In this document: positions 2,687 to 63,107 of the stretch, in pieces | How positions within the stretch are numbered: the stretch's first letter is position 1 | How the letters are laid out: every line of letters begins with the position of its first letter | NCBI GenBank assembly: GCA_030141605.1 | Contig: JAQGDQ010000178.1 | Coordinates: forward strand, 372,001-436,000 | DNA: 64,000 nucleotides | Source of the DNA: Tubiluchus corallicola | Taxonomy: Eukaryota > Animalia > Priapulida | Direction: 5' to 3' | Translations under genes and position numbers: made by a program | The notes under the pieces: generated by a model | What the model saw: only the letters and a program-made list of their open reading frames with translations | Database searches by the model: none | Told to the model about the DNA's origin: nothing

Positions 2687-3984
2687 TTAAATACCAAGAA
2701 ATGCCTTTCGCTTTAAAGCAGATGTACTTGGTTCTTTGGCGAGAGAACTTGGCGTATGATCTGAAACTAACTCATCCTGTTTTAAAGCAGCTGCTCTTTG
2801 CCGTTTAACTGTGCGAGCCTGAACTAACTTATCTCGCCTTAATGCAGCTGCTCTTTGCCGTCTAACTGTGCGAGAACTTCGCTTGCTTTCTTCAGCCATT
2901 TTACAACTTCGTAAAATGTCCTCTAGGCACTCCGCCTCTGTGGATTTTTTAATCTCTCTCAGGTCTGTGTTTTCATAGATGTCTTTTGCTCTAGTTATGA
3001 GTTTAACTGTGTGGTCAAGTACCTCATAGTCATTGGCTCTTTCATCCAAGTTTTTTACAGCCATATGAAATGCTCTCATGATGATCATTCGAAACATATT
3101 CAGCAGGTAAATTGCTGCGGAAAAATTGAAAATGAAGAAAAATGCAGGTCCAAACAGAGAGTGCGCATTTTCATAATTATAAAACTTGCCTCCACTCAGT
3201 AACATGTCCATCAGTGATCCCATAGATATTAAAAACGTATTGAACTCGTAGAGAATGTAGCTAAACACAAGCATGCCAAACAATGCAAACGGCAACAGTA
3301 CTAATAACAAAATAATCGTGTAGTTAAATAGGGCATCTACAGAAAAAGCAATTGTATCCGGAAAGAGAAACATCATCTTATTAAATGACAGTATCTTCCA
3401 CAGTTTGATAGTTACCAAGACGACCAGAAAACCCAAAACATACGTTAGTGTAAAATCCCAAAATGCAGCTGTGTAAAAACTCAAGAATTTTGATTGTTCT
3501 GCCCGCTTGTTTTCTTCTAACAAATTGTCAGTGAGTTTTGCCTTTTTCACAAACAGGATGAATCCCGTTAGGGAAAGGACAATAATGCTAAACTCGACAC
3601 AATTCCAGGTCTTTTTAAAATAGCTGAACTTCAGTTTGTTAAGTTGTTTTCCTTCTCTATAGATAAACACTCCAAGTAGCACAAGGTAAAAAATTTGGCT
3701 TGATATTATTGTTCCATCTACTGCACTTGCAAATGTAACCAGGTTCAAAGTAAAAATCTGATACAATGGAAAAATGCCGCCGGTATTACTAAATTCCAAA
3801 ATCATTAGCACAATGCTGAACAAGTTTGTGTTGGAATTGAATAGAGTCATCTCGATCATCACGGCTCGAGTGCGATCATCAATCCAACGCGAATCAATCA
3901 ATGAATCTATAATCAATTCATTCTGTGAGCGATTGCGAGTCAATTCCATCACATAGCCACCACCGCTGTAGAAAGCTAAATGTC
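2687..3984 (-). CDS. Terminal exon: polycystin cation-channel domain (S2-S6) and C-terminal tail
   Basis: ORF 2687..4027; acag acceptor before 3984; [47 protein letters not shown]; TAA stop. Confidence 0.95.
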
Positions 3985-12900: not shown

Positions 12901-15900
12901 TAATAACAATCAAAGGTTACTTAGTAGATTATAGGCAAAATTAATAGCTTAAAAGCAGGATAACTACCTATAGACAATTGTACCCAGGAAAACCTGAATA
13001 CTTTTCCAACTACTAGTTGATCTTCAGGATTATCTGTAGGAATCCCATAAAACATGATATTCGCCAACATTGTAGTTAAAAGCAACGTCAAGACACAAGC
13101 TAGTCTCTGAAATATAAAAACTAATGTAAAAATTCTAAGTCCAAGTCTTAAAAAATGACTTATCAACAAGAAAAAGCAGTATTATGCTAAAGCTGGCATT
13201 ATAACCAAGAAGCCTCTCATTATATTAAACAGCCATGTTGTACAACTTGACCACTGTACCTGGTCGTCCAATGTTGCATGCTCGGAAATGTTTAATGTTC
13301 GAAAATATTGAAGCAATATGTTTGAGACTTTTGGAAAAAGCACATTTTGAGCAAAATTTTGTATGTTCTATTGTTTCAACATTTGAGACAGCTTCACAGA
13401 AAAATATTTATTAGCGTGAGGCATAAGGTCAATCCAATAACCAGTACAGTGCACAATTGTTTGTAATGATCCACTAATGTTACCTGAAGTGTGTTGGAGC
13501 TCACACAGTAAAAACACGGGCCTTCAAGCACTATCTTTTTTACAAAAAACGTAAAGAATAGATAGATGATAATTCTAAAGTTACTGAGATAGTTTACATT
13601 ATACTTGGAGTGTCATAGTTCATCAGTGTAGTTTGTATTCTACTGAAAATAATAAAAGTTATCAATAGGTTCCATTATGTTGAAAGTTATGGCTGAAATT
13701 TACATTTCCCACACACAAGAAATTAGTTTGTGAAGCAGAAGAGTTAGAATTAGGGTTGGAGTTAGGGTTAGGGTATTTATATTTTGCAGGGAAGTAAAAG
13801 CTCCTTCAAAAGTTATCAATATCTTAAGTATCAAAAACTTCAACAAAAAGTACCTGCACTCTAGTAAAATTGCTGTTTGCAGGCCTCAAGAATATGCTGG
13901 CCCAAAGATGGTTATCCTTCATGTCACGACGTGTATTATTCTTGAACAAGTTAGAAAACATCTGTAAATAATTAACATTTTAGGTAAAGTTAGACAGAAA
14001 TGTACCAATATATAGTTTTAGAGTAAATGTAGACAATGAAACTAGACTTATTAATCTAATAAATAATCCATAATCAACAATAAACATTTTAAAGTCAGAA
14101 CAAGCAGTTTTCTAGGAAAAGTGTCATTCACTTACAACTTATTAAGAATAAGTAAATATATAAGTAGATGTGCTGAATTAATCCATGCTTAAATTTAACT
14201 CACATTTGAAACACATTTTTAAGTCTCTAAATAACAACAGCTGCCATTTTTTCTTCTGCATTCTCCCAGAGAAGCTAAAGAAGAGTTTGGTTGTTGGTTT
14301 AATATGAAAATCTCTCACAAATGTGACAATCATTTATCAACAAATCGTTTAAAATTGGCTAAAAAGCAGCATAAAATACAATGGAGGCTGCGCAGACTCA
14401 CAGTTAATAGAATTAGTCACCTAATTGACTTGAAATGCGAATGACTTCATCTGGTGTGGCAAATGTGCTTTAAAACTTAGGCAGCCGACACAAATAAATC
14501 TACATAATTGACTCAACGGTTTTGCTAAAGGTACAAGAATAACTGGAAGCTAAACATTTAATCACTTGTCTAGTGGTTTCCTCTGAAAGCTCCCACTGCT
14601 TTTCATTGAATGCATAATCAGTTAACTGTTGCTATTATACCACTGATACAGCACCAGTAATTTGCCAGTATTCCTTGTGACTTTAGAAGTGTAGACATCA
14701 CACAACAACTAAGGACATAGAGGTTAATTTTGAAAAAAAGAGCATACATATAAAGACTTAACATTTAACGCTCTCGCAGCTCTTGCGCTGCATAATATGC
14801 TGAAGACTAATAACTCATACTTCTGTACTAGTAATACTGACACCAATCGCCTAATAGATTCAGTTCGTTAATGGGATCAAAACACTTGCATTCCAAAGTG
14901 AATCTATTAAACTGTGCCTACTGTATTCAAATCCCAACAGAATTCTAACACACACAAAATGTAACAACTGCCATGAATGAAACTGGTTACTTATGAAATG
15001 ATTAGGGATAGTAATTGAAACAGTGTTAATCTAATGAAGCACAAACAATAACCACAATGTCTGCAAACTTCAAGAAATATATATAATTAGACTTAAATTA
15101 AATTAAATGACACTAAATGTGTGGTAAACATTTTTCTTAAGTTATAAAAAGTTCTTGAAATGTCACCTGGAGTTGGGTACTAGTGGCTGCAGGAATAGAA
15201 CAATAGACAGTTTTGTTGCCTCGGTCAATAGCTAACCAATTTTGGTAATTAAAAAACCAGGTCTCATTCGTCTGACCGTCTCGAATCACAACTTGATTAA
15301 GAAACCTGTAAAATTAACCAACTGATGAATCACACAGTCAATCAGACAATCATTAAAGAAATTAATTAAAGGAAAACAGGGTGACTTTTCCTGTCACATC
15401 CCATTTTAAAGTATGGTAAAAAGTGTTCATTTTAACATTGTATAATAATGACAAAACGTTTCTGATAAAAAATTAATAGATTAAAAACTTATTAATAGAT
15501 TAATTAACGGTGTACGAGCCTAAACCCAACAGATTTTAAATTTAGCTGTGCTCACATGTGACCTCTTACTTCAACACTGGACACTTGTGAACTGAGAGAT
15601 ACAGCACCTGTTTTCTGTGCAACACCTTTCCGAGATGCAGGTGCTAGCACCCATCTAATTAGCAAATGGCAAAATGCATGTAACAGGGTGGAACTAGACA
15701 TGCGAACGTGAAATTAAGTTTCTATGGTAATAATTCTTACAGCCATTCTTGAAAATATAGTATATTCCCTTTCAATATTTCATAGAGTAGACTGTTCCCG
15801 GTTTTCCTTCAAGCAAATATCATTCAATCAACTAGCCAACTCATAAGAAACAAATCTTTGATAATCTAATTATAATGGATTTACAAAGTATGAAGCAAAC

Positions 15901-18900
15901 GGAACAATTTTGTTTAGATTTATTACATTCAACAGATAAACCTCTAGTATTTCATACATCAACATATCAGAAGACTGCATAACAGGATTAAAAAACATGA
16001 ATACTTTGACTTGATTAGCAGAGTTCAATTAACTTGCCATTCAGGGTGGCTTCCAGCATTATCATGCCATAGCTCAATAGCTGTCAAGTCACCAAGACAT
16101 TTGTTTGTGGTCAGCATGAACCAGTCTTCTGCACCTCTGTGCATGATGGTTCTTGTCTTGTCCTCCAAAATGACCGGGTTGCTGGACATGTTCTTACCTA
16201 ATACATTTAAATAGTAAATTAATCAAGCTGTGTTCTTAAAGCAAGTATCTATACACAAGTCGATCAAAAGGTTTAGTAAATTAGTCTTTCTTACAATATT
16301 CTAATCCTTGGCTGCTTATGACTCAACAAATCACCAAATTGGTAAAAAGAGCATAAAAAACTAAAGTGCAAATGCAACACAAAACAACCCTAACCAAAGC
16401 ATACTGAACTCCTACTTTAATACCATAGAAAGTCCTTTAGTTACAAACAACTTTCAGTACTGCTTTGCCAAAAGAACAATTTATTTGATAAAAACTTTTT
16501 AATGGTAGTACCTATAAGAACAATGGCAACGTGAGCTGAGGTGCCGGCACCATTCATTATCCCAGTGTATGTCGTAATCAAGTAAACATAAGTATCATTT
16601 GGACTATTGTCTTCTAATAAAGTCACACCCAACTAAGAACAAATTACAGTTAAATTAATAATAACCACTAAACAGTTCGACTTTTCTTATCCCATAAAAA
16701 CAAAATCTATAGTAGACCAAATGCAAATTTAGCAGTAATGGCGGAACAAGAGAAGCTTTCTTTGACGTAAAAGTCCTTCATCGTAGTACAGCAGCAACAA
16801 TGTCAACAAACAAAACGAAACTGCAAGCACACTATTTGCCAACATTTGAAAAAGCTCACTATACATTTACGATGCATTGCTTCTTAAACTTTAAAATTTG
16901 TTTTAATAAGATTTCATTGTTATTTTTCAGATAAAATGCTGCTTGTTCTAAGAAGTCTTTCGTAAACTATTGGCATCATTACATTGTAACACTGACAGTC
17001 CATGAGCACTGTTCATTTTGAGCCAGACGTCAATCAGAGAAGTAGAAATATCCATATTTGTCAAATAAATGTAACTACATCAAAATGCAATTTATTGCCG
17101 ACCGGTTTCAAACAAAACAGAATTATGAAATTCTGTTCTGTTGCTACTAACATAATGGCTTGTTGGTTTGTGGAGTGTTAAACAGTTTCTTACTAATCAA
17201 TATATGTAGTATGTAAGATAAATTGCTAAATTATCTATATAATATTATACCATATATCTTTTGGCTATTAACAACTGAATTGTATTTTGACGTTGCTTCT
17301 AAATTCTGGTAAATTTCTTTATTTTAGATGTCCTAATATTGAACAGTTTTGTTCAAAACTGGTTGGCAACAAATTCCATTTTAATCTAAAAGTGTTGTAA
17401 AATGCATTGTGTTATTAAATATAAAGTTTATTTACACTATACACTGACATAGAAGACATTCAATAAACTGTACACAAATGTCTCAGAATAAACTGTTTAA
17501 CAAATTTGTTGTACAATCACTTTATTTTACTAACCCGAAGCTCGTCCACTTTATCTTCTCTCCTAGCATATAAGAAAAACACGAAGCAAGTTATCCAAAT
17601 GAGCACAACAAAAACCACCACAACCGGATTATCAAAAAATGTAAGAAACAAAGCAGCATCTTTGAACGGATGAATCTCATTCGGTGTTGCAAGAAGACTT
17701 CCACCAAATATTGACATGTGTGAACACTGGCAGTGTATCTGCTGTGGAGAGGTGAAAGGGCCAACCTGAAATTAAAACTCCAACTTGAATTCAGTAAAAA
17801 TTTTAAAGGCTAGGAAGTAATAGGTAGCACAGCTAGTTATCTTTGATACGCGTTTTGAACATTTCTGCAAAAATAAACGTGCATTACCTCAATTTCAAAT
17901 TCTATGCTGGTCTAACACATTAGTTCAGAAAATCAGTGACCAGATACTATAGATCATAACTACAGATTATATATTTATAAGATAGAATTGGCTAAATTTG
18001 TATGTAATGACTAGAGGCTATAGATCATAAGTAGGGGTTATTTACAAAACAGAATTAGCTAAATTTGAAAAAAAAATAACAGGCTTAATGTCAGAACTTA
18101 TTCTTGGAAGGACCGGGTTTTTACCCTGTCATAATCACTTGTTACCCTCTCATTATGCAGGTCCTGCCATTGAAGGCATATTTTTGTGCCGGTTACAGCT
18201 TGCAAAAAATGCATCATCTCTTAATTAAAAAAACTACCTGACACCCGTCATCAGACCATTCATCCAGCGTTTCATTCCAATAAAGACATCGTACTGATTG
18301 AAAAGACAAGTTGAAGTTGATGTAGAACAGCTCAACGGGTGCTGAAATAAACAGTTACATTTATACAAGGCAAGTAAGCTGTAAAAGCCAGTACTGAATA
18401 TAATGTATAAGATGATAAAATTAAAATTTAACTTCCATCTTTACATTGATTTACTGAGATTACAATGAGTTTCTCTCTTTTTATTTGGTGCAGTAAAAAT
18501 GTTTAATCACTTCTTCGTATTATTAACGGACATGGGACACCTATACATTGAACTAATGACCCATGGCTAACAAGCACTCTTTAGCATTAAAATTACCTAG
18601 CAATACGATGTGCTACAAAATGCAAATGACCAAGTACGCATCTAAATATATGCAAGTAAAACATGTTATAAGAAATCATTTAACAATCATTTAACAACTG
18701 CCCCTGCCATCCCAGCCCCCTTTGACCATGTACACACATTGCTTTGTCCAGTTCACAAGAAAAGAGTCAGCCATTGGAATTGGAGGATTAACTAACCTTG
18801 CAGTGAAGATATGATAAAACATCATTATTTGGAAAGCGCCATTTTGAGAATCCAAGATGGCCACCAAGTTGATTATTGTAAAAAATGGAAAGATAATTTT

Positions 18901-21900
18901 TAGGTTAAAGCAGATCCTTAGCTCTCCAAAACCCTATAGGATATCTAACCTCCAAAATTTTTTAAGGAACATTATGTATGAGGGAGGCTAAATGCTTGAT
19001 TTGGACTCAAAATATCATTTAAGTAAAAACATTTTTACCTGGTGTGTCATTTGCAGATAAGTAACAAGGAAACTCTACTCTTTCATCCGAAATCGTAAAC
19101 CACTTCATGCAAGGACAAGTAAATGTGAGATAGCTTGTTGTTATTACTACCTAAGTAAACGTGAAAACAACTTGATACAACATAGGTAAAGATTGTAACT
19201 ATTAGCACGAGTTATTTCAGCTAATTCTGGTCTTAGTGTACTCATCAGTTTAAACACGTATTTATTTTACAACCTTTGGACATTCTGTAAAACTGATACA
19301 AAAGTCCACTGGATTACAGAGATAATACAAAACTCGAAAGATAAAGTGCATAATTAGTATCTACATAACAATTAAACAAGCGTATTAATTAATGAAAAAG
19401 CCAGTGGCAATCTAGCAAGTATTAAACAAACGAATGTAAAACATGTAATGTTATCAACGGAAAGTATTGAATTTAGCTTAAGTTTAGGTTTAATATAATT
19501 ACACACAACAGTTAATATACTACAATTTACCAAGATACTAGTTGTCATGTATTGATAATACTGCGTATGAATAGCATAGTAGTGCGGATGGTTAGGAGTT
19601 GTTCGGTTTATGGCCGCGAGGCATAATAGATTAAACTTGTTTCTTATTAGATAAATGAAGCCCATTTCGTGTTTAAAATAATAAAGAATTACAAATATAA
19701 CAGTGGCGAAGAGTTTATGAAGAAACCGAGACTTGTCTGCTGTAAACCACAGAAACCGTAAGTTAGTCATCTATTGTTAAAATGGAAAAAACTGTTATTC
19801 CAAAATTTGATTGCCTGTCTGACCCAGCAACTTTGGGCACGCGCTGGCAAAGGTGGCTGACGTCATTTGAACTGTATGCAGACGGCAAAGGTCACATCGT
19901 TGGAGAAAACGCTGCTGCAGCAGTATGACAGCAGAGACGTGTGCTTTTGTTCACTTAGCTGGCACCGATGTGCAAGAGATCTTTCGCACATTGCCAAACA
20001 CTGGTGAAGCCAACGATTACATTGCGGCAGTGAATGCTTTAAACACATATTTTGTACCGCAAATTAATCCAGTATTCGCTCGACAAACTTTTCATCAGTT
20101 AAACCAGAAACAAGGAGAGACTGTACTACAGTTTGTTACTCGTCTACGGACTGCCGCATGTGATTGCGAATTTGGCGGTGATTCAGACAATCAGATTTGT
20201 GACGCTGTGCTGTGTAAGTGTAATTCGGATTACATTCGTCGTAAGTTATTAGAATCTGACCAAGACTTAACGCTTGCTAATGTGTTAGATATTGCAAATA
20301 AATGTGAGAAAGTTGAATCTCAGATGACATCGTTAGTGGGAACTCCAAATTCCGCTGAAAAAGACAGTTGCAATCTAGTGCACAGCAAAAAGCATAATTA
20401 TGCAAAGTCGCGAAAATTTGCACAACTTAACTCCCCAGGAAAAAAGAAAAATTCTGGAGCCTGCTACAGATGTGGATCGCTAGATCATTACGGACGTGAC
20501 CCAAATTGCCCAGCCAAAGGTCAAACGTGCAAAAAGTGTGGTGGCAGAGATCATTTTGCCAAGGTATGCAAGACCAAATTAAATAAGTTGAATAAAACTG
20601 GGACCAAATATGCTAATGTTAATCAAGTGAAAAATGGTTCGGATGATGAAAACTGTCACTATGTTTTTGTAAGAAAAGATCGCCTGAAAACAAACATGAT
20701 AACTGTCAATGCAGGTGGTGTAGATATGGAGGCAATGGTGGACTCTGGTGCTACTTGCAATCTTATTGATGAAAAGATGTGGGAAAACTTAAAGCGAAAT
20801 AAAATAACATGCAAATCATGCGTGGCTTCATCTGGAAGAAAGCTGTATACTTATGCTTCAAAGGAGCCTCTATCGATTAAAGGTACATTCACATGTGAAG
20901 TTAAAACTGGTCAAAAATGGACAGATGCTGAATTTGTTGTAATCCATGGTGAAGGTGTTCCATTGTTGGGTGAGGAAACTGCGACAACATTGGGAGTACT
21001 GAAAATTGGCACCGAAGTTGCTGCTGTGAGTACTGAGGAATTAACACTTAACAGTTTAAAAACGAAATTTCCAGAAGTGTTTCAAGGCGTTGGCAAGCTC
21101 AAAACCAGGCAGGTGGAGTTGCACATTGATGAAGCAGTAACACCTGTAGCACAACCGTTAAGGAGAACTCCCTTCGATTTAAGGGGCAAAGTTGAGGAGA
21201 ACATACAGGAACTTTTAAATCTAGATATCATTGAACCGGTAGATGGTCCAACCCCTTGGGTCAACCCTGTAGTGGTTGCACCAAAGGACAAAGGTCACAT
21301 CCGGTTATGTGTTGATATGCGCTGTGCAAATGAGGCAATTATCAGAGAACGTCATCCGATTCCGACAGTTGATGAAGTACTGCAAAACATGAATGGTTCA
21401 AAGGTATTTAGCAAACTAGACCTAAAATGGGGGTATCACCAACTTGAATTATCTGAAAAATCGCGTGAGATAACAACCTTTGTGGTACACTCAGGACTAT
21501 ATCGAAACAAACGACTTCTGTTTGGGGTCAATTCTGCAAGCGAACACTACCAGTATATGATAAGTTCTGCCCTGGCTGGACTCGAGGGTGTACAGAATAT
21601 TTCTGATGACATAGCAGTATATGGTCCAGATGAAGACACACACTATGTATGATTATTAGCTGTCATGCAGAAATTATCTGAAATTGGCTTGACCTTTAAC
21701 CCAGACAAATGTATCGTCGGTATGAATCGGTTAGTTTTCATGGGGATACTTCTATCTGAGAAAGGTATAGGTCCAACTGAAGAGCGAGTAAGAGCCATCG
21801 AAGATGCATGAGAGCCGGAAACTGTATTGGAAGTTCGTAGCTTCTTAGGACTCGTTGGATTCAGTAGCCGATTTATCCCAGATTTCGCTACTATATCGGA

Positions 21901-24900
21901 GCTGCTTCGCAAGCTAACTCGAAAAGGAGAACCATTTAAATTTGAACCAGAACAGAAGGAAGCATTCAACTTGCTGAAACAGTATGTGAGAGAAGATACT
22001 CGCAAACGGAGAAAGAGGCTTTAGCACTGGTTTGGGCATGCGAACGATTTCATGCATACATGTATGGACGCAAGTTTGAACTGTTAACTGACCATAAAGT
22101 TTTCCAAATATTTACGGACCTAGATCAAAACCATGTGCACAAATAGAACGTTGGGTACTACAATTGCAACCGTATGACTATAAAGTAGTTTACGTACAAG
22201 GACAACAGAACATTGCTGACCCACTATCATGTCTTTTAAGAGTAGAGGATACCAGCAATCATGAACATGGTGCAGAGGAGTATGTACAGTTCATTGCAGT
22301 TGAAGCAACTCCTAATGCATTAACAACTAAGGAAGTGGAACAATTGTCAGGTTCTGATGAAAAACTGAAGTGTGTTAGAAAAGCTATAAAGACTGGCAAA
22401 TTTGAAAACTGTAAAAACTATGCACCCATAGCGAGAGAATTGTGCATAGTTGGACAATTAATCTTACGGGGAACACGTATTATTCTACCTACTAAGTTGA
22501 GAATGTAAGCTTTCAATCTGGCACATGAAGGACACTTAGGAATTGTTGGCACAAAACAAAACCTTCGAACCAAGGTGTGGTGGCCTGGCATGGATAAAGC
22601 AGCGGAGAAATTTTGCAAGTCATGTCATGGATGTCAGATTGTTGCTCGTCCTGATCCGCCAGAACCATTGAGGCCTACGGTATTGCCAGATGGACCATGG
22701 CAGGACCTTGCCATTGATTTACTTGGTCCATTACCTTCTGGTCATTCTATATTAGTAATCATTGATTATTACAGTCGATACTACGAGTATGCAGTGATGA
22801 TGTCAACGACAGTGGATAAAGTCATAGAGTGCTGTGAAGAGGTGTTTGCTCGTCACAGGTTACCTGAAACAATGAAATCCGGCAATGGACCACAGTTTCG
22901 ATCCAGGGAATTCCACCAATTTTGTCTACAAAATGGAATCTCTCATTTAAAAGTTACTGCTCGATGGGCACAAGCTAATGGAGAATGGAGAAGTTGAGCG
23001 TCAGAATCACTCTACTATGAAGCGCATCAGAATTGCACAAGCTGAAGGCCGTGATTGGAAACGAGACTTAAGAAAATATGTTGCCAAGTACCGAATGTTA
23101 GAACATCAGACAACTGGGAGAAGCCCGGCTAAATTATTGTTTAATAGGAAACTGCGAGGAAAGATTCCAAGTTTTGAGTTAATCAATGAAAATTTAGAAA
23201 TAGTTGATCGTGATGCAGTAGAAAAGGGGAAATCTAAGATTTACGCAGACTCAAGACGTAATGCTGAATATTCCTCGGTGGAACCAGGTGACAAAGTCTT
23301 GATGAAAAAAGATCAGACAAACAAATTTTCGACACCATTCAATCCAGAACCACATACGGTTATTGACAAGACAGGAAACAGTCTTGTAGCGTAATCTCCA
23401 ACTGGAGTTCAATACTCGCGAAATACGAGCCATGTAAAGAGATTCAGGAGTAGGAGAGATGAGACAAGCACGCAATCATCGAGTTCCACGACTCCTTCTG
23501 ACATATCTATTACTACTGATATGGAAGCTGAGAATGAAAGTTCTGAAATTTCGATCAGAAGATCACAGAGGATTAAAAAGAGACCCATAAAGTTTAATGA
23601 TTATGTACTTAATTAAACTAGTTTACAGTGTGTATTTTTGTTCAATTACAATTTACATTAACAGCTTACAGGATTTAAATTTAGACATATCAAGTCATTA
23701 GTTTCAAGTGTGATGTTCACTTATTTGTTAGCTTATTCTACTTATAATATTGTGTTGGTAAGATATCGCCAAAATTGTGTTATTTCTACAACAGACTTTT
23801 CATTAGCAATTTAAGTTTCTGTCTAAATGGGAAAGAGAAGTCATGTATTGATAATACTGCGTATGAATACCATAGTAGTGCAGATGGTTAGAGGTGGTTC
23901 GGTTTATGGCCGAGAGGCATAATAGATTAAACTTGTTTCTTATTAGATAAATGAAACCCATTTCGTGTTTAAAATAATAAGGAAGTACAAATATAACATT
24001 AGTGATCTGGAGTAAATTATGTAAAATGTATGCTTGCTTTAACATTATTATTCAAGTTTTCGTAATTTCCAAGATCTTCATTGACAAATAGATTTGACAT
24101 TGATAACATCATACAAAGTGTAGTAGCAATAGACAGCTGTGTATTCATTGCTGTGCCATGCTTAGTGACACAAGAGTTATGCTGTAAAAGGAAAAATAAC
24201 TTCCCGTGTGTACATGTATTTTTTATTTTTTACTGCAGGAAAACATTAAAGGATCCTGAGTTATCAGCAACTTGCACTATTTTCTGCAGCTATCACTAAG
24301 CTACCATTACTTGAAATTTCAGCTAATATCAGATCTAGTAGTTGTAATCATCAAATCACTGGTCTCAAGATATTTTACTGCTTACAAAATTATTTTGCAA
24401 TTTACTTGAGAAAGTGTCATACCTTTTCTAGCAGCCAACCTGTCTGGAAAAATGATTTCTGAATCCACATTGTAACACTTTGCAAAAGTTTTACAGTTCT
24501 TGTGGAATACATGAACCTATCAATCCTATAAAAATAGATAAAATTAACAGTAAGGTACAGACTAACCTATAACGTGCCTGCTTTACATCTGTAACTCTGT
24601 GTGCTTTATACAAAAGACTTTAAAAACCTTTAAATAATTTCTGTCATGTAATTTTACCCTGTTGTTCAGTTACAGTCAATGATAAAAGCCTCATAGCAGG
24701 TTTCTGTTGAAGTTATAGTCATTTTTAAATATGCCCCCAGAAATTTATAGAAGCACCTTTTTTTATAATTTTCTTTTAGCTTATGATGAGCATGCATGTC
24801 TCTTAGTAAAATTTCAACCAACAGACAATAGCGCCATCTTCATTTTAGAACATAACGGTATAAAACATTAATGAAACATACAAACGTATGAAAAACAGCT

Positions 24901-27900
24901 GTTAAGCACAATTGATGATTCTTTTAAGTAATTGTCGCCTGCAGATTCTTCAAAATAATAAATCTATAGCAACCGTTAACCCTTTCACTATGCAATTGCA
25001 TCTTAACTGGGCTGCATTGACTTTTTGCACGTTTGACAATAGCTTCTTGTAGTGCGTTACTAAAATAGAATCTGGTAAATAAACAAATATGAGTTTGTTA
25101 TTAAACACTAATATTGAATATTAGTTCTATTTGTATATATGTACACAAAAACGTGCATGCAAGTACTCACTTAATTACTCATGCACGCACTTGCACACAT
25201 ACACACGTTAAAAGAAGACTTAAAAATGAGTGTTCACAAAAGTCACACGACTAATTTAAAGCATACAATCATTTTATAAAAAATGCAGAAAAAGTGACTA
25301 AACATAAGTTTCATTAAACATCAACAAGTGATTTTGGGTGAGAACTCATCATGCAGTAGAGTATCGTAAAATGCACGTGGCTTCAGATGGTGAAAGGCTG
25401 GTTAGTGTTATTCCTAATCCCAAGATTGTTAAACTGTTTTACAATGTTCTTGCATGGATGTATCAACAAAATAAACAGGTCCGAGCAATTGGGCTTAGTG
25501 CTGAGTTCTGGCGACAGTCTGACGCCGTCCGTCCCACACACAAAAAACGTAGGCAGCACTGTGCCGCCTTCTATAGTGTAAGGGTTGAGCGACCACACAA
25601 TTTTTTTTCTTTGTAGAAATAGATGTCAAATGGAATATGCATGCAATCCTGCTCGTTGTATTAGAATCAAATCACATAATAAATAAAAAATAAATAAAAT
25701 ACTGTGTAGTAGGCCTACAATATAAAATGTTCAAAGCTCAACGTAAACTTTTACCAAAAGGCAATGAAGGTAGCACCAACTTACTGTGCACGTCCAAAAT
25801 TATTGTTCCCACCAGCTAGCTCAAAAATGGGTGATATACCACCAGTTCCATGGAGTTCAATAAACACCCTAGCGCCAGTGCCGCTATAATCCGTATCAGC
25901 CGTGTATGTTTTTATGTAGTAAGTTGAATCATCTGACAAAAACAAAAAAACACAAACTTACTATCTTTAGTTTTGCTGACAGAAACTACTATATTGTCTT
26001 GTACTTGTTACAAGCCTGGGAACCTACACAGGACTTTCTAAATAGCTACCATTTTGAAAAATGCAAATGAAAAACAAAAAAAATCATACAATGTGTTTAC
26101 TTCATCACAGTACCACAATATGAAAAAGACTTGACAGGGTTTACGTACTTATAATATATGCTCTATATACTGTATAGCCAATGAGACGCTTGGGTGACTC
26201 ACCGTGTGGGGAAAGTACTTTTCCGTATCACTGCCTGAAGAGTCTAGACACCCACTGCCTGAAGCATCTAGACACCCGAGGGAATAGAGGGATGCAGTCC
26301 TTGCTTTGTCCAAGTAAATTGGTGAATAGGTTATAAGATTAGGGTTGTAAGTGAACAAATACGAAAAGATGGATATAGAAGATAAACATTAGAAAAAAAT
26401 TCTTATGCAATATCTCACCAAATTTCTTTTTCACTTCAAGCTACAAAATTGAAATATAAGAAAAAGCCAAGCAACTCACCTGTATAAAATTTCTCGGCGA
26501 TATCAGCATCATACATAATAGGAGGATCCTTTGTCCACCAATTTTTCGCACAAAACGTTTTCTTCTTTTTGGTAAAATTTGTGCAATTGACTGAAGCATT
26601 GAAATTGCATATATTCAAATTTAATGAACATTCATCAAGGCAGTCCTGACGCAGTGCAGAATCGCAAGGAGGTTCACACAAATGACACTGCTTGACACAC
26701 TCAATAACACTGACATTGCAATGTTCTGTGACATATGCACTGCACTCACCATAAATATTCCTACAATGTTGCCTGTCCACATCTAGCTGTATTGTTTGAA
26801 CACAAGCAGAGTCGTACTGATAGATGCATTCAGTGGTGCCTTCACAGTATCTGCTTTTTTGATCTAAACAAGTTGATCTCAGATTTACACATGTAAGCTG
26901 ACACTCTTTAAATTCATACTTACAATAATCAATGCAGGAAGAAACTTTTCTATCACAATTTGCGTTGCACTTGCTAAGTTCATTTGTGCACTTATCAACA
27001 CAAGCAGTATCAGTTGTTGTACAATTGCTTACACATGCATCTTGGTTAGTACTACATTCTTCAGAACAAGTATCTTTCTCCACTTGACAGTCACCTCTAC
27101 GTTTGTTCAAAAACTCTTTGCAGTTGAAGTCACAATTCATGTAAATGCCATGACAAGTCTCATTCACAACCTCAAGACAGTCTTTCAAACTGTTCTCACA
27201 TTTTTGAGAAACATTTTTACAATAATCAATCCACTCATTGTAGCAGCGATATTTCTGCAAACAAGCATCAACACTGCAGCTTCTAGATTTTTTATTGTTT
27301 TTACACTCAGAAGAAACTCTCTTGCATTCTTGTGATGGATCAAAACAAGGAGGAGTCAAATATTCATTGAACATTATGCCAATGTAGTAGTGAATTGAAC
27401 TGCTGCGATTGTTGTATAATACTACACTGTTATCTGGTTGGTCACTTGTAAAAAATGACTTAGCATTAGGAACGGGAATGTCATAGACGGATGAAAAATT
27501 TGAAAAATCTTCAAGAACTGGCCTTACATCCTCTTTAAAAATGACCTGAAAATTAGAACAGTTTTATAACAAACTCATCAAGAAGCATACCAAGTCAAAT
27601 ATCACATGCATTCGCTTAAGTATCAAGTGACATCAACGGGACGTCAGACGTTACCTGGGGCCCAGGAAAAAGTACTCCATAACCGTGATACTCTATAAGC
27701 ATACACTGATAATAATATGTATATGACTACTTAATAGATAGACATGCATGTAATAATAATAAGTGTACAAATAATGTACAATCTGTGGCTTCATAGAGAA
27801 CTTAAATATACTTTTCAAAGATGTTGACAAGTATCAACTACTTTACAGTATATTCAGATTCTAAGAAATACACTTCATGTGATTTCAACAAACAAAAATT

Positions 27901-30900
27901 GATGAACGTTTCATATCAAATTTTGTGTACCCATTCTGCTGTAAATTTACGTGACAGGTTCAATAAAGTCAAGTGGGATTCAAAACAGCTGGTCAATTTC
28001 GTTTATGCAAAATTTTCGTTTGATACTTGAGTTTTTGTCACATAAAAAGTTTTTGCAGCAAAGTAACTGCAGTAGGATTCATCACTTGAAACTGTTAGCT
28101 CATTAGCATGCTGTCAGTGTAGGTACATAGATAAAACAGCTGGTGCTACACTAGTATGAGATCTTTGGACACATGTTAACAGCTTCGCATACTCCATAGC
28201 CAACAACTTTTTGCAGCTCCAGGTGTGGCGCGTTAAATTTAACCGTAAATTAATTTGCAAACGACTGGCAAAGTTAAAGTACGAAATAAAAACCAATAAA
28301 TATATAGTTATACAGGCAATCTGGCCCCATAAAAAGTCCACAATATGCAATAACAAAGTGTGCAATAATGTAGTAATAATAACGATGACAGTTTTTTAGT
28401 TTTTGTGAGTTTGCATTACTGATGCGCAAGCAATAAACCATGTCTGCTATAATAGTGTTATACTGCATCTATTATACAATCAACTATAAGCTGTCCAAGT
28501 TTTACCACAGGACTGACCATACGTCTAATTGTAAGTTTTATCACTGACAATCATAAGGAAGCCTGGTACAATGTCTGGTACATAATCTTGTAATGTAGTC
28601 AGTAACAAACATAATACTTGCTAACTCCATCAATATAATATTTTAGAAAATAAAATAATCACTAATTCAACTTAAGCAAGTGGCTAAACTTAATTAAACA
28701 AGATTCGTCATTCTTCTTATTTTTCCAAAAAATAATTTACAAAAATGGCAACCAAAGTTTTTTTTTAATAAAAACAAACAATATTTTACGTACTTTTAAA
28801 GTTGCATTCTTTTGCAAGCCCTCAAAACCCAAAATGAAGAAACTGTAAGAACTGACAGTGAAATTGTAAACAGTGATATCTTTGTCAGTATAATTTCCAT
28901 AATGCTGGACCACAAAAGATGCAACCAATGAATCACTTGTTGCTGTAAATATTCAAAAAAATTAAAAAATCATTACTGCTTCATTACTCAATCTTTCTTA
29001 GTTTACTCTTCATAACTTAAAATTGACAATGATAGCTTGTTAACACTGCCTTTTAATTTAGTTTGGTTTAAATATAGTTAATTTATTGTAATATGACAGG
29101 GATTACAATATGGCTTGAACAAAACAGTTTTACAACTGATAGACATTCTTACCAATGGAACATAACACTTAGAAGAGTGCAGACAATAAATGAACAGTAG
29201 AAGCATTAAATTCAAATTCAGTTTATTTCACCAGCAGACAAGCAAACTACAATAATACACATTATAAATGTACAACTTTTTTGTATAATTCAAAAAACAA
29301 CAACAACAAAAATAATTTCTGATTCCATAAACATAGCAATTATAGTGTTGAAACTTGTCGCATGGGAGCTATAAAGATGACCTTACTAAGCCAAAATGAA
29401 ATGTGAAACGAAGAATGAAGATAATGAGGAGAATAAAGAAGAGCTATGCTGCAGTTAGTAGAAAGAAAACAGAAGAAAAGAAGTCAAACGAAAACATGTT
29501 CAGAATAGCTGCAGCTGATTTTTGACAAGAAATCATCGCTGGATGCCGTAAGACTGACAGGAAAAACCACCCAAGTGAATTATTCACTATTAGAAATAAG
29601 ACAGAAATGTACGCTATTTCAAACACTTTTTAAAAGTATTTATAGATTTGCTGTTGTTAATGTTTGGACGAATATTGTTCCAATATAAAGAGGCTGTGAA
29701 TTTAAGAAAATGTCTATGAATATTCATTCTACAGTACAATAGGGTACAAAATACTCATTAAGACAGGTATTATTGTGTTTAATCACATAAGATTGGATAA
29801 AAAAGTAGTTGGAAATAAACTGAAATGTGTTTTGTACATATATGTAGAGAAGTTAAATGAAATTAAATCTTCTAAAATTGAAATACTACAGTTTCGAAGT
29901 AAGTAGTGATTTAGTTAGTTGTCTATTTTCTTTGATATCTATTTAAGATAACCAAGTCTGTAGGATAAGTTCTGCCCCATAACACAAAACAATGTTAAGC
30001 AAGGAAAAATTAATGTATTATATAATGATAATAAATAAAATTTACATGGTTTATATTTGATATATGAAATTATTCAAGGCTTTTGCAATTTTTGACTTAT
30101 CGTGTTTACATGAGGCTGCTTCCAATCTAAGTTTTCATGAATGACAATTCCCAGAGATTTGAATGTACTCACACGCTCGATCAAACAGCCATCGGTATAC
30201 ATATTTATATCATTTGGAAGTGTTTTGTTTTTGTTATGAAAAATCATGCATTTTGTTTTGTAGGGATTAAGAGATAATGTTATATGAGAACAATCTGTAA
30301 TTACAGGTAGCGTCTCATTTATCTGTTTTATGGAGTAAGAAGATGGACTGAGAAATAAGGTTGTGTCATTAGCAAACTGAAGTAGGTTCAAGTTGTGTAA
30401 TAAGTTACTTAAATCATTTATGTAAAGCAAGAACAACATGGGTCCCAATATGGAACCCTGAGGAACGCCACATTTCATACCCGACAACAATTCTAACTTC
30501 TTACTTGTTGAGTATGACTGGCTAAGTAACTGACAAACAAGGTATTGGTTGTGCCTCGAATTCTATAATGAGTCAGTTTTTGAAGAAGAATTGAGTGGTC
30601 TATAGTTTCGAATGCTTTTCATAGGACACAGAAAATGTCTGCTGCTAGAGAGTTATTTTCAATAGTGGCTACAATAGTGGTTATAGTGCATCACTATTTT
30701 TGAAAAGGGGTATCATTACAGCTTGTTTTAAATTTGTTGGGAACATATCCACACTAGGTGATGCATTTATTATATATGACTAATAGGTGTAGCAATGGAT
30801 GGCATTGGCATGGTGTCATGAAATACCTTGGGAGAAAAATTGTCTATTCCTGGACTTTTACTTGAGTTTAACGTTTTACAGATGCTTATTACCTCGGCAG

Positions 30901-33900
30901 GACTAATTGGTTTAAAAAAAGATCTTAAAACAATTTCCCATTAAATGATCCGCTTAATGCTTGTTTGAATTTCAAATTTTATTTGCAAGAGATGGTGCTA
31001 TATTTGCGAAATATTCATTGAATTTATTTGGGGTACAGTAAATTAACATACTGTCTTTACAAATATATTGTTTGAGATTCTCAGTTTCTGCAGCTTGGCT
31101 GGCTACTTTAGATGCAGTGGTTTTCACTAAGGCTGTAAGATCATTGTTCTCTTGTTCAGTATTTTCTAATCTTGTCACACATCGCACAAAGATTATCATA
31201 TTTAGTTTCCAAAGATGTTTGTCCTGCCTCAAGTTTTTTCAAACCAATTTGGATTTTGCCCATTTCAGACATCATTTCTCCTCTAAATTTTTACAGTTCA
31301 GATGAAAGGTTTTCGTCAGTATTAGATTTCATATTACCTTCAATATAGTGTCACATTACAGTATGATTGCTAGCAGTGTAGATCCTGCTACAACAATACC
31401 TAGCGTAATGTTGAGAATGACATGTGTAAACAATGTAAACTAGTACAATGGTTAGAAGTGCTTAGTTAAAAATATAAATATCTGTACAAGCTTAATACTT
31501 GAGTATTAACAGTTATAAGTAGATATTGATGGCCAAGAAGAAGTAGATAAATGACTTCATTTGTCGACAGATTAATATCCTAATATTATACGTAATTAAC
31601 AGAGTACAGAGTTTGTTTAATATCTCAGGTCTGGTGATATAAGGGGCAGCTATTTAGAAAATGACCAGTGGTTTCAAAAGAGGCACCGCATCTATAAGTA
31701 GGTAAAATGGGGTTCCCTGACTTTCTTTTTCGTTACAAGGATAATAGAAACGAGAATTCTACTAATACGTTCACATTCAGTAAAAAAACTTGATTCAAAC
31801 GTCTACCATACATTTCTAAAAAGCTTAAACATGCTCAGCAGCAAACCAAAATCAATTAACAGTACCTTGTGTATCAATAAAGAAATCCAAAGGTCGTGAA
31901 ATTGGTTCCTCTTCACGTTTCGATGGGTCAGTCATACTAAAACTCAATACTGGGGTATTCACAAGCAAGGCAGATTCATCCCAGACAAATGGGTTTTCAG
32001 AAACAACATACATCTAGCAAGCACAACATAATGATAAACACTATCTGTTAATTGACCAAAAATACGAACCTACATAATAAGAATTTGTTAAGGTATTTGG
32101 TAAAATGGCAAACTATAAGAATTTGTTGAGCTTTTTGATAAAACAGAAAACTAATTGCTTCAAAGCCTCACTCTGAAACACTTCAAACATTAACTAGTGT
32201 GTAAATAAATTATTAAACTTACCACTGCATCCACGGTTTTGTAATCGTCAGCCACAGCATCTGTGTTTTTATCGTCCAGTGAAGGTTCTAATGGAGGGAG
32301 AAATACACGTCCAGAAGCTTCTAGATCAAATTGAAAACCTAGAAATAGGTGAACATATATGACAGGAAAATTAAAAATGATATTATCAGTAAATGGCACT
32401 TATTAGACTCACTGTTAATAGAATCAGTCACCTAATTGACTCACTAATGTCTGGTTACCCACTCCAATGTTAGTAATGGAAAAATGGTGAAGTAAACTTA
32501 CTAGTGCAGTGAGATTTAGTTTGTACTCAGACAACATACAGATAACATATTGACAACAAACAAAAAAATTTACTTGTTGTAACCATTTGAAAGCTAATAT
32601 ATTAGTCATAAAAATTTACATATGGGTACAGGTGGCGCTGTTGTATTGTGAGCTACATGGAAGAAATCTCAGCCCTTCTCTGTCATGCTGGGCTAATAGC
32701 TTAGGTGGTAGAGCCTGTGAGTACTAATACTATCAGCTTCAGGTTCAAATCCCAGCTATTCAACAATTTTTCAGTGTCTCCTTTGTCTAACTCATTAGCC
32801 TCAGAGTAACAGCTGATAAAATAAGCCGTTCTGGTTTACAATAAAATTCTGGCAATCATAATTAATTAACAATGAAACTTGTTTTACCCTCAGAGCTTTT
32901 GGTGCGTTTTTTGTCCACTATAAGTTTAAGCGATTCGGTAATGATAGTACTAGGTTCTTCACCAAGAATTTTATAATCAAGAACAACTTTTGCAACACTG
33001 TCGACGATCTTCAACGTTTTCAAGGATGTGTCTTCTGCCTGTTTGAAAATACATAGTTACTGTAAGTACAGAAAATGTCAGGAAATGTGTCGTTTCAGGA
33101 AAAGTCCACTAAAAAAATTAAGTACTTCACAATGAAATTAGAATATAGAAAGGGCAACCTACAAAAAATAGTCAGATTAGTGTGGACATAAATAAACTAA
33201 CTCAACTTACTTTGTTTAAATGGAAATGATACTGAAAATTTCTACCAGGAAGAGGTTTAATTGTGTCCAAAAACATTAAAGGATAACTAGCCATAACATA
33301 GAAATCACAAATGCCATTAGGCATACACAGGCATTTTTGAAAATTATCCATTTGTATAATCCACTTATAGCGAGTTTCAAGGGACCATGAAAATTTGCTC
33401 CCCACAACCGACTCTCATTTTTGATGAGGTGAACTGCTTGAGTAAACAAGATACAAATGAAGATTATACAAAGTGGATGAAACAAGGATGAAAAGGGCAC
33501 TTTCTTTTGGGACTGGCACAAGTTTCTCAATGAGTGCCATTCTTAAGCAACTAATTAATCACAAGAGTAAACCCTTAGTGTTTAAATTTTCTTTTTATAT
33601 AGGATTAAGGCGGTATTTTATGCAATAAATAAAACTGTCATGCAAGTTTCTTTTCTCTAAGTTAAAACTGCTGTGATTCATTGTGATTTCTGTTGATAGT
33701 TGAGTGTGTTTTGCCTGATCGTGCATGGTTATTCATGATCATATAAATGCGTTGGATGTATTTTGCACTGAACGCGGTTAGATCTGTGTGGGCGGAAAAC
33801 AAACCTGATTTTTATTTAAATCTGTACAGGACAGTTTGTTTTATAATTATAAAGCATTTTCAACATGGACCAATGTCAGCTAATATCTAATTACCCATGT

Positions 33901-44200: not shown

Positions 44201-45646
44201 ATTTGCAAAAACCTAAATAACTAATTCTGTGATACTTTTGCAAGAACATTAGGTAAGTTAGTTAAGCACTACACTATGCAAAAAATCACAAGGTCAACCA
44301 GTTACGCCATAATGTGCAAGTAAATGGCGGCTGTCAACGTGGCTGAAACTTTCTTTACAGCAGTGGTATAAATTAACTTCATGCTTTATAAACACTCTTT
44401 GTTATACTTTCTAAGTTTAAATAATAAGAATAAAGTAAATCCAACATGATGAGTGACTTGTCCTTTCCTTTAAGACGTTAACATAATAATTATTCAATTA
44501 TGGTTAACATTTGCGTGCAAAGTAGGTTTTAATCAGTGTTTATTTTCTTCCTTGTGTTCAAAATAAAGTGGATTATTCAGCAGGTCTTTTCCTTAATGTT
44601 AGAGTAACTGGTGAAAAAATTGCTGTTTTGCCTTTACTCTTAAAATGGAAAATAAAAATCAATATTTCGATACATAGAATTACTATGTGCTAAATGGAAA
44701 GTAAAAATCAATATTTCGATATATGGAATTACTATGTGCTAAATGGAAAGTAAAAATCAATATTTCGATATACGGAATTAATACGCACTACAACAATTGG
44801 GTACAACGAAGTTCACGAACCTTCAGCTTTAACCTTATAAACAAAATCCTCGACAAAAACATTTTCTTTCGGGATAATGAAGACTTGTGTGTCAGCAGAT
44901 GCTGTTGTATAAAACTCATCAGAGACGTCTCTACTTTCAGTTACCGAATAGATGGTCCAGGTAAAATGAAATGGCTCATCATCATTCTTGCAGTTTGTGC
45001 AAACAGCTTGTAGAGCTAACTTTTCTCCCGTATTCACTTTGCGTAAGCAGTTCCTCAAACATCTTTATAATAACAGGCCAGATAAAAACAAAAGAAAAGA
45101 GATTATATCAAAACAAGAAGCACTCAACTTTGCCCACACACAAATAATTAATATAAAACTAAAGTAAACATTTTCACCGTACTAGTCACCAATCATCATT
45201 GAGTACAGTTTCCTATATCACACAATTTACATGTTAATTAGCCAGAGAATTTTTAAAATAAACTTTGAATTAACAAAAATATTCTCAAAAGATTGGTGCC
45301 ATTAGAATACCTAATTTCAATAGTTGGTCTTTCTCCTGGTAAAGCTATTATTTCTTGCTTGGCTATGACAGCAGTTCTGCCTTTTCTTCCAAATGACAGC
45401 GCAAAAGTCAATGTTATGTCCTGAGGTAAAGATCTAGGAGGAATGGTAATAGCTGATTCTGAAAAAATGGCAAAGTGTACTATTAACAACAACAACTTAA
45501 AAGTTCAAAAATATAATTCATGCTACCGCCAAATACGTTTTCCGCCTGAAAAGTGGCCAGGAAAGAAACAGCTCAGCTGTATTGAACTGCATATAAAAAT
45601 AACCCGTTATACTGCCATCTGTTACCTGTCATAAGCCACGGAAATA

Positions 45647-45678
<32 letters not shown>

Positions 45679-48600
45679 TCAATAGGAAACACTAAAAGCA
45701 GTCTCAACTAACACCAGAGACTTCTTGGTATAATGCCAACTGTACGAGGCTGATATACGCTCCGCTGAGTCAGAGACACTAGTCAGATATCATGTGTAGA
45801 ATAATGCCAGTTATCATGTTTGCAAGCTGTACCGTACAATGTACATCGCTCATGTAAACAAAAACTCCTTAAAGAAGATGAGTGAGTCGTTAATTCACAG
45901 ATGATTAATTTAATAATTTTTTTTTAATTCATTAACTCTTAGAGTGAAAATTGAGGACACTAACCTGTGTAAATTGGACTGGCTGTTGTGATTTATCTAT
46001 GGGAAAATTTAACACACCTCGTTATAATTCAGACTTTTTTCTGATCAAAAAGCGGGCAGTATAAAGAGTATTGACTATATGCATAGATCGTCATTATCAC
46101 TTCATAATTTTAATTAAACACTGTTAATTGTACGCAATTAAAAAACACAGACTAAATTATGTTTTAAACTTGTGTAAATTATTGACATTGAAAATAGTTG
46201 TTGCGAGGGCAGCTAAAAAGACGTGATAAACAAAATACTTAGCTATAAAAATGTATGTAACATTTGAGATGCAAAAAACCTAATATATTAATAGTAGCTT
46301 AAAGGCAGAAATTTCGTTACTTTTTAGGCACTGCTACTGTAGCATTTTCAGATTGACATGCAATGCTAAATGACAAACCAGAAATAGATATCGTTGTATG
46401 ATAACGTACAGCGCTCGCTTGTTAAACTCCGCTAGCCAATTCATGTACATGATGTGCAAATACATAAAGAGCAGTGAAAATGAAACACATCACCACAATT
46501 TCAGAATCACAATCAATTCATAATTTCAGTTCATAATAGTTGTAAAAATTTAAATGGTTTAATTACTCATACCGTTAAAAGGAAGGAGAGTCACACTATT
46601 ATCAAAACATCCTGGGACATTAGGATCAGGAATGCGGCCTGTACCAACATAGCAGTACCATGTATACCTTAAATAAATAGTCATTAGTGTTATTTATTTA
46701 TAAATTGCTAACTTAATCAAATTTATACATTGCTAAGAAATCAGTCTGCAAGTAAATAGACAGTTTCGTTTCCATTGTTACATTATTTTACAAGTTTATA
46801 GTGATTCTATTACATTTTGTTTTTGCTTTGAAATCAGATATAATTCCCAATAGTTATACGATACTTACAATCATTGTGAAATTCATATTTAAATGATTGT
46901 TTAACAAAAATCCAACAAATAGTGAAAATTGTTTATTTGTTCTTACATGTAAGGAGGATCAACATGATTGGTGTGATTTATACCGTAAACAAATTCGTGA
47001 TACGTATATTGATCAAGCTGCTTGTTGTTTGCTTCATTTACAGTTTTGCTAGCATAGTATTCATCACTCTCATGTCCAAAACCAAACTCGTCATCGTTGT
47101 CCATAGTTAGATAAGTCCAGTGTTCATGCCCAGGGTCGCTGTATGGAGGATAGTCAGGATCATACGACGCAGAACCATTTATCACAAAGCTTTGATTCCA
47201 ATTGATATACCTGACGTCACCTCCTTGCAAAATTGGCATTAATTCTGAGGGATATATAATGATCCAACCCTAGATAATACAAGTATAGGCACAAATTAAT
47301 ATGTTTTGTATCAATTTAAAACAGTAACATGCTTTTTTGTAATTAAGATATGTATCTTTTTACACCTAGAATGGAGAAACTAACACAGAGTTTTCTACTA
47401 ATAAAATTTAGTAATTGCATTATTGTATTACCGAAGATATTAAATTACTCAAAGTGGAGTTTAATATTTCTTAGAAAAGGGTGAGAAAATCTGTGCAATT
47501 CCTAAAAGATACATGTACTGCTTCAACATGGAAATATGTCACATGCCAAAGACTACATGAATAAAATTAACATGAATTAAATCACCTGGTACGTATTTTT
47601 CACAACATTTTCTGTCTGTTCAGATAACACTGCCAAACGTATGACATATGTCCCTGGTCGTAGAAGCTTGGAAGGTACTATAAAATAGTGGAGAGACGCA
47701 TTAACACTTTTAGGCAGTTTAATTAAATTTGCCCAAGATGGAACAGGGTAATCTTCAGATATGCGAAAGATGTGCCATTCATACCGCAGCTGAACTTTCC
47801 TGGTGCAAGTGTCATATACTATTGAGGACACTATGAATTCGTCACGAACTCTAAACTTTGGTGCTTCGCTACGACTATAACCAACATTAACAAGATCGAT
47901 GTTAGGCAAGCAATCATCTGGATTGTCAAAAACGTTAAAGGTGAGAGATGCATTCCAGTAAACCCAGCCTTCGATAGAGCTATGTGCAGTAACCATATAC
48001 GTTCCTTTTTTAGCATAAGAGTGACTGTATTCACACGCCACTCCAGGGATGGTTTCACTAACAGCAATACCTAAAATTTTGTGAGCGCATACAGATGTTT
48101 CTTTAATAGGAATAAACTTTTCATGATCATAAGTGAATGTGAATTGATCACCCATGTCCCACTCAAACACGACATCTCCAAAAGTTCTGGAGTCATTTGA
48201 ATATATGAGAAAACAAATGGCATCACCAGTGTCATATGCAGGCAGATGCTCATCCTCTTCTTTCTTCTCCTGGAGTAGGACCAAATTTCGAAATTTATCT
48301 GAAATAGTTGCATTTAATAAACTGGAGATTACAAACTGTCCTTATAAGGCACAACAGTTGTACTTGATGGTTTAATCTATAACAGTATAACAACGTAATT
48401 TAATCTTATAATACAGGACAGTTGTATCTTTACCAAGCAGAAAATGCTACTAAGATGTGACCAGCACCTTAATTTGGATATGGATCTTTCACGTTTCTAA
48501 GCAATGACATAAGTCCTCACCATTGCATCATCAAACGTGTCTTCTTGTATTGCACAAGTTTTTGTATACATTGTTCTACACATAGTTTATTTAATATAAA

Positions 48601-62463: not shown

Positions 62464-63107
62464 CTAAAAACCAATGAAAATAAATTTTGCATAAGGGCTA
62501 CCGAAACAATAACAAACATCATTTGTAATCTTTAAAATTGACAATTAAAATTATTATAAAATAAAATTAAGGTAAAATAGGCTACTTAAATGATCACATC
62601 TATTACATACCAATTCAACCATAAAATTATAACTTGCCCACCAAATGCTATATAAAGTCTGCTAAGTTCCTCTCTCACAAATAGCTTCGGAACAGTGGTA
62701 TGCAAAATAAGTTTTTCGTATAACGTCATATGACGTGGCACATTATCTGCTGGTTTGGCTACAGCACTGAAAATGTGATAACTCCCAAATATTTGATATT
62801 TTGCATACAGCTGCTACATTCTACCATTCACTGTACAACTAAAGTAGATTTACCTTTTTTTCAATAATTTATTGAAAACCTGGAACTACAAGATAAAAAA
62901 TAAAATTAAACATCTGATTGCTTTTTGTTTTAAGTTTATAAAAAAAAAGCAAGAGAAGGTGTCCCTCAAATGAGAAGTTGAGAAAAGCGCTGACGCAGTA
63001 AGTGTAAATGAATAAAAATTTCAACCACCAAAAAATGTTCGAATCGGCGAAAAACAGATTTGCCCTCAGAGACGTCAGACTTGTTTCATTATATGTATCA
63101 TTTACTT

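Follow-up and report, generated by a model that had tools for sequence, protein, structure and literature searches.

We identified an insert of about 416 residues in the GAIN domain of a Tubiluchus corallicola gene which, to judge from its sequence, is a member of the polycystin-1 family. The insert consists of a cysteine-rich segment and a PLAT-like domain, both upstream of the GPS strands, and is real, orderly and apparently lineage-restricted. According to structural modelling, the core of the Cys-rich segment is likely to form a rod that is about 10 nm long and held by 11 nested disulfides between C109 and C248. We lean towards a reading in which this rod and an extracellular PLAT-like domain would together make a stiff arm, relaying the binding or pull of a partner to the GAIN subdomain that holds the stalk. 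The weight of the finding is that of one sequence from one animal, with a coding model known from the genome alone.

The host gene and the position of the insert

The window, by which we mean the whole 64-kb stretch of DNA that was analysed, comes from an AT-rich genome and holds most of a single intron-rich gene on the minus strand. Its recognizable parts are EGF-like, REJ and GAIN/GPS exons, a first transmembrane (TM) helix, a cytosolic PLAT domain and a polycystin channel exon (Table 1); the EGF-like exons were recognized by reading translations. An 11-exon model from 32013 to 15167 has AG acceptors, GT donors with a single GC exception, matching phases and 827 codons free of stops. The GC donor, at 16038 in a GC-AG intron, is required for an in-frame cytosolic PLAT domain. 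Fragments resembling a LINE reverse transcriptase, recognized by eye, lie at 30074-30940 in the intron upstream of the exon that starts at 28942.

Table 1. Coordinates in the window of the gene features discussed in the text
Feature	Position	Strand	Basis
REJ-domain exons, four pieces scanned	44816..48341	-	Pfam REJ, E 6e-9 to 1.5e-5
GAIN exon, strand with NPF motif	31866..32013	-	Gene model and alignment
GAIN exon upstream of the Cys exon	28794..28942	-	Gene model and alignment
Cys exon, phase 0 to 1: GAIN subdomain-C strands (aa 1-60), Cys-rich domain and linker	26480..27545	-	
Cys-rich domain C67-C332: 266 residues, 41 Cys, 8 N-glycosylation sequons from aa 46 on	26550..27347	-	
Rod core C109-C248: hairpin of two antiparallel helices (predicted), with 11 mirror Cys pairs, one of them a residue out of register, and orphan C208	26802..27221	-	
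R149 (CGT), mirror of orphan C208, on the Cys face	27099..27101	-	
Hairpin turn C175-C182, the mirror centre	27000..27023	-	Helix break at aa 174-179 in both AlphaFold2 models
C-terminal Cys segment C261-C332 (second set of the first-pass annotation)	26550..26765	-	
Inserted PLAT-like exon 1/3, phase 1 to 2	25785..25932	-	
Inserted PLAT-like exon 2/3, phase 2 to 0	24423..24525	-	
Inserted PLAT-like exon 3/3, phase 0 to 1	19039..19150	-	
GAIN strand S10 and first GPS half	18238..18341	-	Pfam GPS, E 1.7e-4; tblastn with P0001
Second GPS half, stalk and first TM helix	17535..17765	-	H-M-S at 17720-17712
Usual cytosolic PLAT, three exons (16632-16512, 16197-16038, 15305-15167)	15167..16632	-	Pfam PLAT, E 1.6e-5
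Polycystin channel exon	2690..3985	-	Pfam PKD_channel, E 1.2e-36

The best match of the channel exon was the hemichordate protein P0001 (29% identity), one of 6 proteins returned from 7996 scored candidates in a search that covered no full-length polycystins of more than about 2000 aa. The GAIN region was compared with two proteins out of those six. Against Pfam, the first GPS half scored 22.4 bits, with a cut-off of 22.5, and both halves align with P0001 by tblastn. The GPS triad is H-M-S, as against the usual H-L-T/S. The consensus for GPS cleavage is given as HL-T/S (PMC9672506), and autoproteolysis is plausible in the product of the host gene.

The host gene shares REJ, GAIN/GPS, a TM helix followed by PLAT, and a C-terminal channel with the polycystin-1 family (PKD1, PKD1-like, PKDREJ and the sea-urchin SpREJ). 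It differs from these proteins by the extra residues ahead of the GPS, as measured against P0001, and by a second PLAT domain that is predicted to be extracellular. The domains listed for a coral polycystin are WSC, PKD, REJ, GPS and one PLAT, and such an insert goes unmentioned in that list (PMC4890752).

The size of the insert follows from the spacing of two aligned blocks (model residues 6-113 and 594-810), which are 481 residues apart in the host protein and 65 apart in P0001. Its start was placed directly after the YYIGI strand (27389-27375, minus strand), inside the Cys exon, by comparison by eye with P0001 and P0004; automatic alignment left this strand unplaced. The polycystin GAIN subdomain C is described as nine-stranded and polycystin-specific, lying between strands S9 and S10 and holding the tethered-agonist extension (PMC11697300), and we infer that the insert sits at the end of this subdomain, just ahead of S10. 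The first-pass annotation had proposed a Cys-rich insertion in a polycystin GAIN domain, and the gene model and the alignment against P0001 bear it out. As to the content of the insert, the Cys-rich part stands, and three further exons, which had been missed, add an entire PLAT-like domain. A plain pairwise alignment assigned the STYYI strand at 25932 to GAIN, an assignment we rejected: the PLAT profile spans all 100 residues that follow.

The Cys-rich domain shares its exon with GAIN strands, and skipping that exon breaks the frame, which led us to reject the domain as a cassette exon. None of the ten top-scoring donors within the exon falls directly after the YYIGI strand. A consensus phase-1 donor at 26750, in frame with the following exon, could drop aa 266-355, and its use would possibly remove the C-terminal Cys segment. 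The Cys exon is very probably present in the mRNA. A single RNA run gave zero coverage of this exon and zero exon joints of the host gene, and is uninformative either way.

Cysteine spacing and the predicted helical rod

The Cys exon is bounded by an AG acceptor and a GTGAGT donor and encodes 355 aa without a stop. A chance open reading frame was rejected, as shuffling the bases of the exon 2000 times gave open frames of at most 154 codons. Outward from C175-TTTDTA-C182, the gaps between cysteines are 3,6,3,6,10,3,6,7 on the N-terminal arm and 3,6,3,6,3,6,3,6,7 on the C-terminal arm, where 3+1+6 equals 10. A second set, 7,6,3 / loop / 3,6,7, is also present. The cysteine count and the listed spacings of the first-pass annotation thus agree with the exon translation.

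The spacings had also been described as a perfect mirror. As spacings they hold, but their rarity does not: gap shuffles reached this mirror in 3 of 20000 cases, and in 939 of 20000 when the periodic core C153-C226 was fixed and only the flanks were shuffled. The mirror is largely explained by the 11-residue periodicity, because any 3,6,3,6 repeat is already a palindrome. With the core kept, the exact zip of 9 pairs is marginally rare (the same 939 of 20000), a zip of 11 pairs with a tolerance of one residue was reached by 1220 of 20000 shuffles, and 13 pairs in any register by 243 of 20000. Thirteen Cys pairs sum to 357, a number that free shuffling of the gap order reached in 6 of 20000 cases. 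A rival register, with sum 335 and its turn at C164-C171, pairs 12 cysteines and leaves 7 unpaired within its span.

More permissive settings extend the mirror. With a tolerance of one residue and three skipped cysteines, a single mirror of 16 pairs extends from C67-C290 at the outside to C175-C182 at the centre (reached by 72 of 20000 shuffles with the core kept); with two skipped, a 15-pair mirror reaches out to C74-C283 (65 of 20000). Both settings were chosen post hoc from four that were compared with shuffles. A recent origin of the hendecads from tandem DNA was rejected, as non-Cys codon positions are 30% and 35% identical at offsets of 33 and 66 bases, like those at control offsets.

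The twelve cysteines of each arm fall on a single helix face, at 97.7 and 98.5 degrees per residue, an arrangement that none of 2000 random placements matched and that supports an earlier proposal. The periodicity of the stripe is about 3.67 residues per turn. Hydrophobic residues occupy the Cys face and one of its flanks, and the helix backs are polar, with hydrophobic residues at 3 of 26 and 5 of 32 positions. Two single-sequence AlphaFold2 runs, one of the whole Cys exon and one of aa 61-340, both placed one long helix at residues 100 or 101 to 173 and another from 180 onwards, separated by a turn at 174-179. The predicted fold is therefore the one that had been suggested from the spacing, a long antiparallel helical hairpin turning at the mirror centre. 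In the model of aa 61-340, ten-residue blocks have pLDDT values of 75-90 over aa 121-230, symmetric around that centre; mean pLDDT is 46 and 61 and pTM 0.29 and 0.37 in the two models, with low values past aa 230.

A crude model of ideal straight helices at 98.2 degrees per residue brings nine mirror pairs, including 149-208, to C-beta distances of 3.6-4.9 A, its best fit of 7.0 A being the lower limit of the helix distances tried. At 102.9 degrees, the heptad periodicity, the mirror pairs fail. That the disulfide ladder forms is, given the Cys spacing, a probable outcome, on evidence from one sequence of one animal. The orphan C208 faces R149, whose codon is one transition away from Cys, as are 14 of the 225 non-Cys codons in the Cys-rich domain. 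This is suggestive of a lost cysteine, and with a Cys restored at 149 the count becomes even.

At the base of the rod lie 18 cysteines (C67-C101 and C261-C332), for which the candidate layouts are one 16-nm hairpin and a second hairpin with a small N-terminal knot, and these compete for C276 and C283. A layout of two hairpins (C109-C248 and C261-C332) plus a knot (C67-C101), as opposed to a single 16-nm hairpin from C67 to C290, is a serious if still tentative alternative. Its three nested sets pair all 42 ancestral cysteines in 12+6+3 bonds, and the models show helices at 280-287 and 296-313/317 flanking the loop; the single long hairpin leaves six C-terminal cysteines, C101 and C287 without obvious partners. 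The second hairpin corresponds to the second mirrored set of the first-pass annotation, which is present in the sequence as four exact pairs summing to 589 but is not beyond chance: 5565 of 20000 shuffles reached four pairs, compared with the 72 that reached the single 16-pair mirror. The pLDDT of 25-40 in the C-terminal segment also counts against the two-hairpin layout.

The inserted PLAT-like domain and the known relatives

The three inserted PLAT-like exons encode 121 residues and, as a phase 1-1 module, can be left out together without a shift of frame. The inserted domain aligns with the cytosolic PLAT of the same gene at a score of 72 (reached by 0 of 5000 shuffles) and with the PLAT of P0004 at a blastp E of 5.7e-5. 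Against a profile of four polycystin PLAT sequences, which took in the host gene's own cytosolic PLAT, it scored 24.6 bits (E 8.6e-10 in a one-sequence database) over model positions 4-109 of 124. A Pfam scan of the first of the three exons alone returned no match. The similarity to PLAT/LH2 domains, by profile and by pairwise alignment, thus extends over about 100 residues. Since the intron positions differ, the inserted domain is not a recent copy of the cytosolic one.

The inserted domain lies N-terminal to the first TM helix and within GAIN, and so would be extracellular. PLAT was always intracellular in the 10 sea-urchin and 5 human proteins compared in PMC1934368, and an extracellular PLAT, if true, would depart from the topology that is usual in polycystins. 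The intron between the second and third inserted exons contains a plus-strand retrotransposon of the Ty3/Gypsy type (19544-24005), with Pfam matches to gag, protease, reverse transcriptase and integrase in separate open frames, and two direct repeats of 166 nt (19544-19709 and 23840-24005) that are 93% alike.

Sequence searches with the Cys exon at E<=0.001 found no relative among 138 candidates of similar length, among 143 longer candidates of 623-2000 aa or among 1.84 billion representatives; Cys-rich queries are prone to filtering, and the search of longer candidates stopped at about 2000 aa, so that full-length polycystins lay outside it. Nor was there a relative in metagenome contigs, a usable Atlas match, or a Pfam, NCBIfam or PDB sequence match, in keeping with the earlier view that no described domain corresponds to the Cys-rich insert. 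Foldseek with the predicted Cys-domain model gave no match at E<=0.001 in PDB or viral models. A VIA fold search, in which aa 250-340 were barely tested, returned generic hairpins only; its alignments with hairpins of known structure have their midpoint near aa 178, which is the mirror centre (model residues 78-159 and 68-168 are instances). In the literature covered by a listing-level search, which left subscription papers mostly outside, there was no description of a polycystin GAIN domain with a Cys-rich or PLAT insert, nor of a hendecad disulfide ladder.

The closest known systems are the cystine-laddered helix-loop-helix peptides, i.e. vicilin-buried peptides, alpha-hairpinins, scorpion CS-alpha/alpha toxins and nemertean neurotoxin B-IV. 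Like the rod, these have CXXXC pairs across a short loop (in the rod, C171-C175, a six-residue loop and C182-C186), and their antiparallel helices and ladder-like pairing are both predicted for the rod. Such peptides are reported to have 23-55 residues and 0, 2 or 4 disulfides (bioRxiv 10.1101/2020.05.26.118075), with neurotoxin B-IV, a helical hairpin with four disulfides (PMC6410017), described as the largest of them. The predicted rod, in contrast, is a module of 140-220 residues with 11-16 rungs inside a receptor, and the segment as a whole has 266 residues and 41 cysteines within a membrane protein, quite unlike a small released peptide of 23-55 aa with at most four disulfides. None of these peptides appeared among the sequence or fold matches of the Cys domain, in searches that easily miss short Cys-rich relatives. 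By analogy, then, the rod would work like the cystine-laddered hairpin peptides and is no member of them. Long antiparallel coiled-coil hairpins (chemoreceptor tips, SMC arms, ESAT-6-like proteins and prefoldin) resemble the rod in overall shape; unlike the rod, they imply no Cys ladder. The best VIA score against them was Z 10.8, among many ties and in the range of a 'common arrangement', with identities of 1-13%.

Possible roles of the insert

How force or ligands reach the polycystin-1 GAIN domain and uncover its stalk is described as an open question (PMC9672506). In the stiff-arm reading to which we lean, disulfides formed in the secretory pathway would give a stiff, protease-resistant rod. 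With the hendecad spacing C-x3-C-x6 the two helices would run side by side almost without twist, which would bring each Cys opposite its mirror partner, and the polar helix backs would leave the rod exposed. Rod and PLAT would be suspended from GAIN subdomain C. A matrix or cell-surface partner might bind the rod and the PLAT domain, PLAT being a membrane- or protein-binding module, might dock on the outer membrane or on a protein. Load on the sandwich that holds the stalk could then tune stalk exposure and with it channel activation, a view that agrees with the tethered-agonist models discussed in PMC9672506. This last step, in which load or binding is passed through the arm to subdomain C and adjusts stalk exposure and channel activation, is a more tentative proposal. 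The strongest version, which we regard as unlikely, is a mechanical handle made of a single 16-nm hairpin with up to 16 nested disulfides and an extracellular PLAT anchor, whose pull gates the channel. Were it true, a pull on the rod would pry at the subdomain in which the tethered agonist is held, and the hairpin would be several-fold longer than any described cystine-laddered helical hairpin.

The same rod could instead be purely a ligand-binding or spacer module, uncoupled mechanically from the cleavage site. Although somewhat doubtful in itself, such a plain role is nearly as likely as the load-passing arm. The ectodomains of polycystins and adhesion GPCRs freely collect adhesion modules (PMC9672506), GAIN loops are often longer than 50 residues (PMC11697300), the host gene also carries EGF and REJ exons, and the back of the rod is polar and exposed. 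Against it, the insert lies inside the GAIN fold and not in the N-terminal string of modules, so that load on the insert would reach subdomain C directly.

A neutral or dead insert, whether a tolerated addition to a variable loop or a piece of a gene copy in decay, is improbable. The protein searches that were run found no relative, a cysteine was probably lost at position 149, a retrotransposon occupies a PLAT intron and the 3' end of the gene is partially duplicated, all as this explanation would have it. However, the 355-codon open exon, the intact phases over 11 exons, the conserved GPS, PLAT and channel motifs and the ordered amphipathic pattern argue for selection. Slightly less probable again is that the Cys stripe forms inter-chain disulfides, joining two receptors as a coiled coil. 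Long amphipathic helices with a stripe of cysteines on one side, an odd Cys count and a free C208 would suit it, but the helix-breaking turn at the exact mirror centre in both models fits an intramolecular fold, as do the outer mirror pairs. A thiol-lined, metal-binding bundle in place of disulfides, for which the copper-storage protein is the comparison, is very improbable: it would account for the many C-x3-C motifs on one helix face, but the Cys domain is extracellular to the first TM helix and has N-glycosylation sequons, cysteines on the extracellular side are normally oxidized, and a rod of two helices that are polar on their backs encloses no lumen.

Whichever role the insert may have, a natural addition of 416 residues marks a loop of subdomain C, beside the stalk, that tolerates large folded additions, and handles or tags for force experiments could be placed in such a tolerant GAIN loop. 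The rod, if true, would take disulfide-laddered helical hairpins from 4 rungs up to 11-16, and would represent a stiff secreted nanorod built on a simple 11-residue rule.

A second copy of the 3' end of the host gene, 97% identical and taking in the first part of the channel exon, lies some 3.5 kb further downstream (1-1773 versus 3525-5352), as either a tandem duplication or an assembly artefact. At the far end of the window, a 33-bp tandem repeat of 27 copies (63110-64000) is open in one minus-strand frame, with Pfam matches that look spurious. Upstream of the EGF exons, a Cys-containing open frame at 61919-62497 has weak, unrelated Pfam matches; by eye it resembles a galactose/rhamnose-binding lectin domain. 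Lastly, positions 53507-56786 hold 6.6 copies of a 500-bp unit, 98% alike and with one EGF-like exon each, an array that amounts to a recent exon expansion in the ectodomain.
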